Shown here piece by piece: positions 5,105-48,689 of a stretch of 64,000 bases of DNA. Source of the stretch: Escherichia coli (GTDB lineage Bacteria; Pseudomonadota; Gammaproteobacteria; Enterobacterales; Enterobacteriaceae); NCBI RefSeq assembly GCF_050320075.1, contig NZ_CP190018.1. One strand, written 5' to 3'. Under the pieces are notes generated by a model. It worked only from the letters and a program-made list of their open reading frames with translations, was not told the origin of the DNA and searched no databases. Made by a program: the position numbers and the translations under genes. Each line of letters starts with the position of its first letter. The stretch's first letter is position 1.

Positions 5105-6298
5105 TTAGAACTGGTAGACTAAGCCCACAGCAACGATATCATCGGTAGCGATGCCGTTTGCTTTGTAGAAGTCGTCGTCGTTGTCCAGCAGGTTGATTTT
5201 GTAATCAACGTAGGTGGACATGTTTTTGTTGAAGTAGTAAGTCGCACCAATATCAACGTATTTAACCAGATCTTTATTGGTGTAACGTGGGTCGCCGTTG
5301 CCGTCATGAGCCCAACCACCTAAATCCTTACCTTTAGATTGCAGGTAAGCGATGGACGGGCGTAGGCCGAAGTCGAACTGATACTGAGCAACAACTTCAA
5401 AGTTTTGGGTTTTGTTCGCAATACCACCTCTGTCAATGTCGTTATTGTCTTTTCCGCTGCCATATGCAGTCATATTACGTGTTTCTGCATACATTGCCGC
5501 TAAATAGACATTATTCGCATCATATTTAGCACCGACTGTCCATGCTTCAGCTGTTTCACCACCAGCATATTTATTCGAGCGTTGCTCACCTAAACCAGTA
5601 GCACGTTGGTTATCAGTACGGTCAGAGTTTGAATATGCAGCCCCGAGGCTTAACCCGAAGTCAAAGTCATAGGAAGTGGACATACCGAAACCGTCACCAT
5701 TTTCTTTAGACAGTTTACGATTATTACCATTACCAGAACCTTCTTGATCCCAAAGCCCACCCGATCCTTCATTATTACCCTGATATTGCAGAGCAAAGTT
5801 CAGGCCATCGACCTGACCAAAGAAGCCATTGTTACGGTAGGTTGCAACACCATTAGCACGACCGTTCAGGAAGTTGTCGGCACCAGCATAGGTATCGCCA
5901 CCAAATTCTGGCAGCATATCGGTCCATGCTTCAATGTCATATACGACACCGTAGTTACGACCATAGTCGAAAGTACCATTCTGACCAAAGCCTAAACCTG
6001 CAAATGCCAGACGCGTTGCGGGATTACCTTTGTCGCTTTCAGGACCGTTTGCGCCAATGTTAAATTCCCACTGACCATAACCAGTGAATTGGTCAGCGAT
6101 CTGAGTTTCACCTTTGAAACCGATACGGGCATATGACATGTCGCCATCGCTGCCAGCATCATCAGAGAAGTAGTGCAGGCCCGCTACTTTTCCGTACAAA
6201 TCCAGTTTATTACCATCTTTATTATAGACTTCAGCCGCATTTGCTGCGCCAGCAACTAATAACGCCGGGACCAGCATTGCCAGAACTTTTCTTTTCAT
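5105..6298 (-). CDS. yedS: Outer-membrane general porin, OmpC/OmpF family (YedS), apparently intact
   Basis: Signal peptide [21 protein letters not shown], aromatic/Gly-rich beta-barrel repeats, C-terminal ...VGLVYQF; start taken at the MKRKVL Met (6298) inside the longer ORF 5105..6328. Confidence 0.85.
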
Positions 6299-6610
6299 TA
6301 TGTATTCCCTTGTGATTATAATCTTCATGAATATATCAATAAGTGCCGTTATCCAAAAAAAAGCACATTTGGATACTATTCTATGAAGTTCATTTTATTT
6401 TAAAGATTACATGTAACAAATATATTTAAAAGATTTCAAAATGTTTCTAATCTATTTAATATAATTCAGAATTATGAATTCTAAATATAAATATTCATGA
6501 AAATTATAAATGTATATCAATATGTTATGAGTTGAGCGGAAACATAGGGGGTATCAATGATTGTTGCGCCAAACGGCTGGTGTGATCACGCGCACATTAA
6601 TGAAGGCATA

Positions 6611-6701
6611 AAAAAAGCCGGCATCATGCCGGCCCAAAAAAAATAAACAAGACGATAAAAGGCTAATAACGGAAGCATCATGACACAGAATAATAAAAAG
6701 G
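6611..6701 (-). ncRNA. rseX: Candidate small RNA ending in an intrinsic terminator; position fits RseX, which I recall lying between yedR and yedS
   Basis: Hairpin GCCGGCATGATGCCGGC (6618..6634) flanked by T-runs on the minus strand, in the divergent yedR-yedS intergenic region. 3' end supported by sequence; 5' end placed by assumed ~90 nt length. Confidence 0.4.
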
Positions 6702-6872
6702 TATAATTGTAATCAGTGCTAATATATTGATTGAATGAATTAATAAAGCCGATATCAAAGATAAATAAAATCGCTCAAAACGATTTTTCCTGTATTCACT
6801 GCCGTTGCGCAAAAATTATCTATTTGTTCAAAAAATGATTGAGTCTTGACTGGCTCATCCAATGTGGAAAAA

Positions 6873-6888
6873 TGTGACTTTTATCACA
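6873..6888. promoter_or_regulatory. Consensus CRP-binding site (TGTGA-N6-TCACA)
   Basis: Sequence TGTGACTTTTATCACA read directly; perfect match to both CRP half-sites, upstream of or within the 5' region of yedR. Confidence 0.55.
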
Positions 6889-6926
6889 TAATAGTACTAA
6901 GTCTGAATTTTCCGGGTTATCTCAAA

Positions 6927-7229
6927 ATGGAATACGGTTCGACAAAGATGGAAGAGAGACTCTCTCGCAGCCCTGGCGGCAAATTGGCTTTGTGGGCTTT
7001 CTATACATGGTGTGGCTATTTCGTCTGGGCAATGGCGCGTTACATCTGGGTGATGAGCCGGATCCCTGATGCCCCGGTGTCGGGATTTGAAAGCGATTTA
7101 GGCTCTACCGCGGGAAAGTGGTTAGGGGCACTGGTCGGATTTTTATTTATGGCTCTGGTCGGGGCATTGTTAGGCAGCATTGCCTGGTATACCCGACCTC
7201 GTCCCGCACGTAGCAGACGCTATGAATAA
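6927..7229 (+). CDS. yedR: Small inner-membrane protein YedR
   Basis: ORF 6846..7229 with two predicted TM helices; start uncertain (TTG 6846, GTG 6864, ATG 6927 or ATG 6948). ATG 6927 chosen because the CRP-like site lies upstream of it. Confidence 0.6.
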   Translation: MEYGSTKMEERLSRSPGGKLALWAFYTWCGYFVWAMARYIWVMSRIPDAPVSGFESDLGSTAGKWLGALVGFLFMALVGALLGSIAWYTRPRPARSRRYE

Positions 7230-48386: not shown

Positions 48387-48462
<76 letters not shown>

Positions 48463-48516
48463 GTTTAAAAGGCATCGGCGTCAAGCGGATGTCTGGCTGA
48501 AAGGCCTGAAGAATTT

Positions 48517-48590
48517 GGCGCGTTAACAAAGCGGTTATGTAGCGGATTGCAAATCCGTCTAGTCCGGTTCGACTCCGGAACGCGCCTCCA
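48517..48590 (+). tRNA. cysT: tRNA-Cys (anticodon GCA)
   Basis: 74-nt GGCGCGTTAACAAAGCGGTTATGTAGCGGATTGCAAATCCGTCTAGTCCGGTTCGACTCCGGAACGCGCCTCCA. Confidence 0.95.
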
Positions 48591-48602
48591 CTTTCTTCCC
48601 GA

Positions 48603-48689
48603 GCCCGGATGGTGGAATCGGTAGACACAAGGGATTTAAAATCCCTCGGCGTTCGCGCTGTGCGGGTTCAAGTCCCGCTCCGGGTACCA
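48603..48689 (+). tRNA. leuZ: tRNA-Leu (anticodon UAA), with long variable arm
   Basis: 87-nt GCCCGGATGGTGGAATCGGTAGACACAAGGGATTTAAAATCCC...GGTACCA. Confidence 0.95.

Follow-up and report, generated by a model that had tools for sequence, protein, structure and literature searches.

The window, that is, the whole 64,000-nucleotide stretch of Escherichia coli DNA analyzed in this study, carries the small RNA gene rseX on its minus strand, between an intact yedS-type porin gene and drpB. Over 631 nt, this region of the window is 100% identical to strains such as WP8-S18-ESBL-07. The features of the locus are as follows, with the basis of the assignments in brackets.

5105..6298, minus strand: yedS-type OmpC-family porin gene, intact, 397 aa, with a signal peptide (NCBIfam NF007841, porin OmpC subfamily, 546.8 bits vs a cutoff of 484)
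6610..6699, minus strand: rseX small RNA gene, 90 nt (RF01401 full-model match; K-12 b4603 alignment)
6610..6616, minus strand: U7 tail, 3' end of the terminator (sequence; invariant in the cross-species alignment)
6615..6635, minus strand: Rho-independent terminator hairpin, core GCCGGCA-UGA-UGCCGGC at 6617-6633 (terminator scan, fold, conservation)
6636..6647, minus strand: U-rich tract UUUAUUUUUUUU, RNA nt 53-64, directly 5' of the terminator hairpin (sequence)
6649..6675, minus strand: predicted target-pairing region, RNA nt 25-51, CUUCCGUUAUUAGCCUUUUAUCGUCUU (accessibility-corrected duplexes; conservation)
6662..6686, minus strand: weak 5' stem-loop spanning RNA nt 14-38, its loop (nt 24-28) variable (Rfam consensus structure line)
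6706..6711, minus strand: -10 box TACAAT, its last T 7 nt before 6699, the annotated 5' end
6730-6735, minus strand: candidate -35 TTCAAT, weak, with an 18-bp spacer to the -10 box
6927..7229, plus strand: drpB (formerly yedR), divergent from rseX (NCBIfam NF038392 DrpB, 151.6 bits; annotated in K-12 and in the identical genome)

An RNA position p corresponds to window position 6700 - p. The gene order porin (-), rseX (-), drpB (+) is the same as in K-12 and in the identical annotated genome, in which PGAP labels the porin gene 'porin OmpC'. The porin gene shares the strand of rseX and lies 311 nt farther downstream. A reading made from the letters alone (hereafter, the sequence-only reading) had described the genes on either side of the hairpin as divergent, and the porin gene at 5105-6298 (-) and drpB/yedR at 6927-7229 (+) are indeed so arranged.

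When the entire window was searched against Rfam 15 with gathering thresholds applied, RF01401 (rseX) was placed at 6610-6699 (-). The hit scored 95.1 bits (gathering score, 50; E 1e-11) and spanned the full model, positions 1-94 of 94. At the same site, STnc430 (22.4 bits vs gathering 47) and RyhB (20.9 bits vs gathering 55) were rejected as sub-threshold, and both matched the terminator hairpin alone. The curated MG1655 record lists the ncRNA rseX (b4603) at 2033649-2033739, 91 nt in length, with drpB (formerly yedR) and yedS as neighbors. When K-12 rseX was aligned to the window, 89 of the 91 gene columns were identical, and the gene with its flanks showed 99% identity. Within rseX, the only substitution is A to T and falls in the U-rich tract, at nt 57 here and nt 58 in K-12, and the T-run of the tail has 7 T here vs 8 T in K-12, resulting in an RNA of 90 nt vs 91 nt. 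The gene in the window and K-12 RseX (b4603; RF01401) are the same gene in the same position and orientation, with the same terminator and -10 box. In contrast, the adjoining yedS is a pseudogene in K-12 and intact in the window, which indicates that the window derives from a non-K-12 E. coli. Collectively, the results establish that 6610-6699 (-) is rseX, an sRNA gene already known. The sequence-only reading had proposed that a short minus-strand transcript ends at the hairpin and is RseX adjoining yedS, and the RF01401 match and the b4603 alignment both support this proposal. Its coordinates, 6611-6701, were off by 1 and 2 nt, so that its guessed 5' boundary lay within 2 nt of the annotated one, and the known RseX, aligned as that reading had suggested, matched these same bases rather than aligning elsewhere or not at all. 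Elsewhere in the window, Rfam matches include DsrA at 15038-15124 (+), with 102.5 bits, and three tRNA genes at 48387-48686 (+), a placement that fits the K-12 map region at ~2.02-2.04 Mb.

As observed on the plus strand, positions 6610-6643 read AAAAAAA, then GCCGGCATCATGCCGGC, CC and AAAAAAAA, and the minus-strand reading of the same interval is UUUUUUUU-GG-GCCGGCAUGAUGCCGGC-UUUUUUU. A 17-nt perfect palindrome occupies 6617-6633; on the minus strand, it reads GGGCCGGCAUGAUGCCGGC and is followed by U7 (6616-6610). The perfect stem at 6617-6633 has 7 bp and a loop of 3 nt, and two G-U pairs extend it to 9 bp (6615-6635). Thus, the perfect hairpin between A/T tracts that had been noted earlier, with the minus-strand reading GCCGGCATGATGCCGGC, is present at 6617-6633, and so is the U-run that was said to follow it on the minus strand. 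On the plus strand, the hairpin is followed 3' by CC and an A-run with no U-run, and it is therefore a terminator for the minus strand only. Moreover, a terminator scan of 6250-6950 found exactly one site, namely this hairpin (9 pairs, 6 of them G-C, loop 3), where dinucleotide shuffles expect 0.2 +/- 0.5. In the centroid fold of the 90-nt RNA, the hairpin is the sole element, at -14.6 kcal/mol (ViennaRNA), and the stability of the whole-RNA fold is unremarkable (z -1.35).

Within the RNA, the hairpin spans nt 65-85, and the U-tail spans nt 84-90. The usual Hfq-binding arrangement in enterobacterial sRNAs comprises a U-rich tract followed by a hairpin and a U-tail at the 3' end, and we infer that these three elements form the Hfq-binding module of RseX. 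The general sRNA model, together with the published Hfq dependence of RseX, leads us to expect the U7 tail to be the site for the Hfq proximal face. The 5' stem-loop of the Rfam consensus differs from the minimum-free-energy structure computed with ViennaRNA. Two adjacent start triplets, AUG AUG, occur at RNA nt 19-24; as read from the sequence, a Shine-Dalgarno is absent, and no stop codon occurs before the transcript end. A mechanical 44-aa ORF at 6678-6812 (-) has its start upstream of the rseX promoter. The rseX promoter itself scores below the threshold of the consensus scan, and its -35 is weak. Facing drpB on the plus strand, a strong sigma-70-like site, ATGACA-16-TATAAT, lies at 6680-6707 and agrees with 11 of the 12 consensus positions. 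Its -35 lies within rseX, and its -10 (6702-6707) overlaps the rseX -10 (6706-6711) by 2 bp. This site may be the drpB promoter, placed back-to-back with the rseX promoter, with the two starts ~15 bp apart.

Previous reports describe RseX as a 91-nt RNA that downregulates OmpA and OmpC (PMC7648144). Its computational prediction, in 2002, relied on a sigma-70 consensus combined with a Rho-independent terminator (PMC8313858). Douchin et al. 2006, as cited in PMC8313858, isolated it as a multicopy suppressor of RseP essentiality, found its repression of ompA and ompC to be Hfq-dependent, and obtained 5' RACE results indicating that K-12 RseX is a primary transcript from a sigma-70 promoter. More recently, native RseX was undetectable until hns was deleted, and it was more abundant in an hns stpA strain, with species of ~91 nt and ~75 nt (PMC8313858). 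The same study added fimB and ihfB as further targets, based on gel shifts, lead-acetate probing and reporter assays, and stated that the RseX site on ompA was never mapped (PMC8313858). In Salmonella under envelope stress, the RseX signal was absent (PMC1804206).

Based on these reports and on the anatomy of the gene, the following mechanism can be proposed, in which Hfq dependence, targets and H-NS silencing are taken from the literature and the exact pairing nucleotides are predicted. Transcription from the sigma-70 promoter (-10 TACAAT, 6711-6706) would start at 6699 and would be stopped by the GC-rich hairpin and U7 (6635-6610), yielding a ~90-nt primary transcript. The Hfq-binding module would consist of the 3' U-tail together with the U-rich tract that precedes the hairpin. 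The conserved single-stranded body (~nt 25-51) would pair with the ompA and ompC mRNAs at their Shine-Dalgarno and start regions, thereby blocking translation and destabilizing both mRNAs. Because the outer-membrane protein load would be lowered in this way, RseP, a protease of the sigma-E pathway, would become dispensable in cells carrying multicopy RseX. In wild-type cells, rseX would normally be silent because the AT-rich intergenic DNA of yedS-rseX-drpB is repressed by H-NS and StpA. The GC content of the intergenic region is 27-34%, vs ~50% in the neighboring genes, which fits the reported H-NS silencing.

The pairing step was examined with the RseX of the window and the start regions of K-12 ompA and ompC (-50 to +30), using windowed duplex energies together with opening energies, and dinucleotide shuffles of RseX nt 1-64 served as the control. 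The porin gene of the window was treated alongside. The duplexes obtained were as follows.

ompA: RseX 37-51 with -23..-7; duplex -17.5, total -9.3 kcal/mol; z -0.13, 47% of shuffles as good
ompC, contiguous 14 bp with 3 G-U: RseX 29-44 with -14..+1; duplex -16.3, total -8.3 kcal/mol
ompC, best total: RseX 25-43 with -28..-9; duplex -16.2, total -8.7 kcal/mol; z -0.12, 41% of shuffles as good
yedS-type porin of the window: RseX 10-30 with -11..+11; duplex -10.8, total -4.2 kcal/mol; worse than 96% of shuffles

All listed ompA and ompC duplexes cover the Shine-Dalgarno sequence. However, they are no better than those formed by dinucleotide-shuffled RseX, an outcome explained by the U-richness of the RNA and the purine-rich character of the start regions. 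The complementarity to ompA and ompC that the sequence-only reading had suggested looking for is thus present over both ribosome-binding sites and indistinguishable from shuffled controls. Since shuffles do equally well, this complementarity is compatible with the known function and is not independent evidence for it. For the start of the neighboring yedS-type porin gene, the duplex test against shuffles gave no sign of targeting. An unrestricted RNAduplex run of RseX nt 1-64 against long 5' regions was set aside, as it produced implausible duplexes of 50-60 nt that were no better than shuffles.

The distribution of the gene was then compared across genomes. The 151-nt segment of promoter plus gene is present in 4879 of 5426 complete E. 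coli genomes, mostly at 95-99% identity, while ~516 of the 5426 (about 10%) lack rseX and drpB together, in agreement with a report of secondary loss of the locus (PMC3318445). In a pattern scan of one genome per species, rseX was found in E. albertii, E. whittamii, two further Escherichia lineages and Citrobacter amalonaticus. These copies outside E. coli score 70.9-95.2 bits, all above the Rfam gathering score. The Citrobacter amalonaticus homolog (L007 1944-2040, +) has 70.9 bits and keeps the order yedJ-drpB-rseX-OmpC-family porin, so that the gene is not confined to Escherichia and Shigella, and this argues that it is older than an E. coli-specific acquisition. All 11 sequences compared, which come from E. 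coli, four further Escherichia lineages and Citrobacter amalonaticus, keep the terminator stem; in Citrobacter, one pair has changed in a compensatory manner from G-C to A-U. Hardly any change is seen in the core CUGUGUCAUGAU...CCGUUAUUAGCCUUUUAUCGUCUUGUUUAU or in the terminator, whereas variation is free in the loop at nt 24-28 and in the DNA that precedes the promoter; within the pairing region, the core CCGUUAUUAGCCUUUUAUCGUCUU is close to invariant between E. coli and Citrobacter. This combination of a conserved core and terminator with diverging flanks argues for an RNA under purifying selection. Covariation in the terminator amounts to the one compensatory pair, a value that the shuffle control reaches in 43 of 500 runs, the family being too narrow. 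In the 5' stem, the pairs are invariant except for single unpaired exceptions (in Citrobacter, a G-to-U change gives a U-U mismatch), and covariation there is neutral.

Several individual genomes show altered loci. In E. coli MLI104K2, which lacks rseX and drpB (L014 5684-7089), the hchA-yedJ interval is ~1.4 kb long, unannotated, and shows only fragmentary homology to the window, and both hchA and yedJ carry frameshifts. The rseX of E. coli P276M (L011 2542-2625) lacks 7 nt of the conserved GCCUUUUAUCGU core, carries 2 inserted nt close to its 5' end and is altered in the -10 region. This deleted allele is unique among the 5426 complete genomes and is probably an inactivated copy. In the same strain, the adjoining porin gene is shorter too (1059 nt). 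E. coli ECO11 (L015 1945-2712) carries an IS1B insertion with a 9-bp target duplication, AATGAATTA, equivalent to window 6734-6742, that is, at -35 to -43 of the rseX promoter. This site coincides with an H-NS occupancy peak at -42 to -32 of the rseX promoter (PMC8313858). In a second genome, H95, IS1A lies between the porin gene and drpB. Judged by position, such an IS1 insertion could de-silence rseX, or it could sever drpB from the upstream promoter-like site.

Alternative readings of the locus were weighed against these observations. That rseX is a cryptic relic, permanently silenced by H-NS and StpA and decaying in the species, with a hairpin that has no current physiological role, is in our judgment distinctly unlikely. 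Native RseX has never been detected in wild-type cells of E. coli or Salmonella (PMC8313858, PMC1804206), ~10% of complete E. coli genomes are without the locus, with secondary loss reported (PMC3318445), one strain has a 7-nt deletion in the conserved core, and IS1 has inserted into the promoter region, all of which would suit a decaying gene. In contrast, the near-invariance of the core and terminator between Citrobacter and E. coli, set against the free divergence of the surrounding intergenic DNA, argues for purifying selection, and cells that lack hns produce RseX, which acts on its targets (PMC8313858).

The hairpin might instead act as an attenuator within a long yedS leader, such that transcription either stops at 6610 or reads through 311 nt, but we consider this very improbable. 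The conserved shared orientation is its sole positive support: in every lineage examined, Citrobacter included, the porin gene adjoins rseX and shares its strand. Promoter-like sites in the 311-nt spacer are at chance level (6 vs 4.5 expected, from the scan of the whole 6250-6950 interval), which would also be in keeping with a shared transcript. However, the 9-bp GC-rich stem with U7 is a strong terminator, an anti-terminator alternative is not seen in the fold, and rseX is intact in K-12 despite the yedS pseudogene. Finally, although A/T-flanked palindromes do occur in AT-rich intergenic DNA and PGAP marks no feature at the site in RefSeq, the idea that the palindrome is a chance or structural element (an orphan terminator or a repeat) with no transcript of its own is effectively refuted, as it is excluded by the Rfam match, which spans all 94 model positions and reaches beyond the hairpin, and by identity to the bases of an experimentally studied gene, with only 0.2 such sites expected by chance in the terminator scan.

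Collectively, we regard it as very probable that rseX in this strain is a trans-acting Hfq-dependent sRNA gene with its own promoter and terminator, which silences ompA and ompC and is repressed by H-NS and StpA. For this account, the present analysis supplies the gene identity, boundaries, terminator, -10 box, synteny and conservation.

RseX resembles MicF (by ompC) and MicC (by ompN) in being a short Hfq-dependent RNA beside a porin gene that represses other porin mRNAs at the ribosome-binding site. In K-12, MicF adjoins ompC; micC lies beside ompN. In contrast, neither has sequence similarity to RseX; rseX is co-directional with its porin gene, whereas MicF and MicC diverge from theirs; and RseX is silenced by H-NS rather than being under OmpR or stress regulators. 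The targets of RseX also overlap with those of the sigma-E-dependent MicA and RybB (ompA and ompC, respectively), and overexpression of MicA, RybB or RseX each relieves the need for sigma-E pathway activity (PMC8313858). However, RseX is outside the sigma-E regulon and is undetectable under envelope stress (PMC1804206).

The feature is thus already known, RseX having been predicted in 2002, characterized in 2006 and revisited in 2021, and as a discovery it carries little weight; its value lies in annotation hygiene. PGAP annotates no rseX in the listed RefSeq E. coli genomes despite the Rfam family and the MG1655 annotation, and this is a systematic gap. Because rseX is unannotated in essentially all RefSeq E. 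coli, scans of raw sequence keep rediscovering the gene.

The intact yedS beside rseX makes this strain a better background than K-12 for the native role of RseX. One tentative and, in our estimation, rather unlikely proposal is that rseX and the yedS-type porin gene form one H-NS-silenced 'porin-swap' module, co-inherited since before the Escherichia-Citrobacter split; once desilenced, YedS would be made while RseX would clear OmpA and OmpC from the membrane. The micF/ompC pair offers a plausible analogy, and RseX would spare its neighbor, given that its pairing with the yedS start is poorer than that of nearly all shuffled RNAs. A search of the available literature on YedS regulation found nothing further. 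This proposal would be testable only where yedS is intact, as in this strain and not in K-12, and, if true, it would fill a gap that has existed since 2006, namely the native role of RseX.
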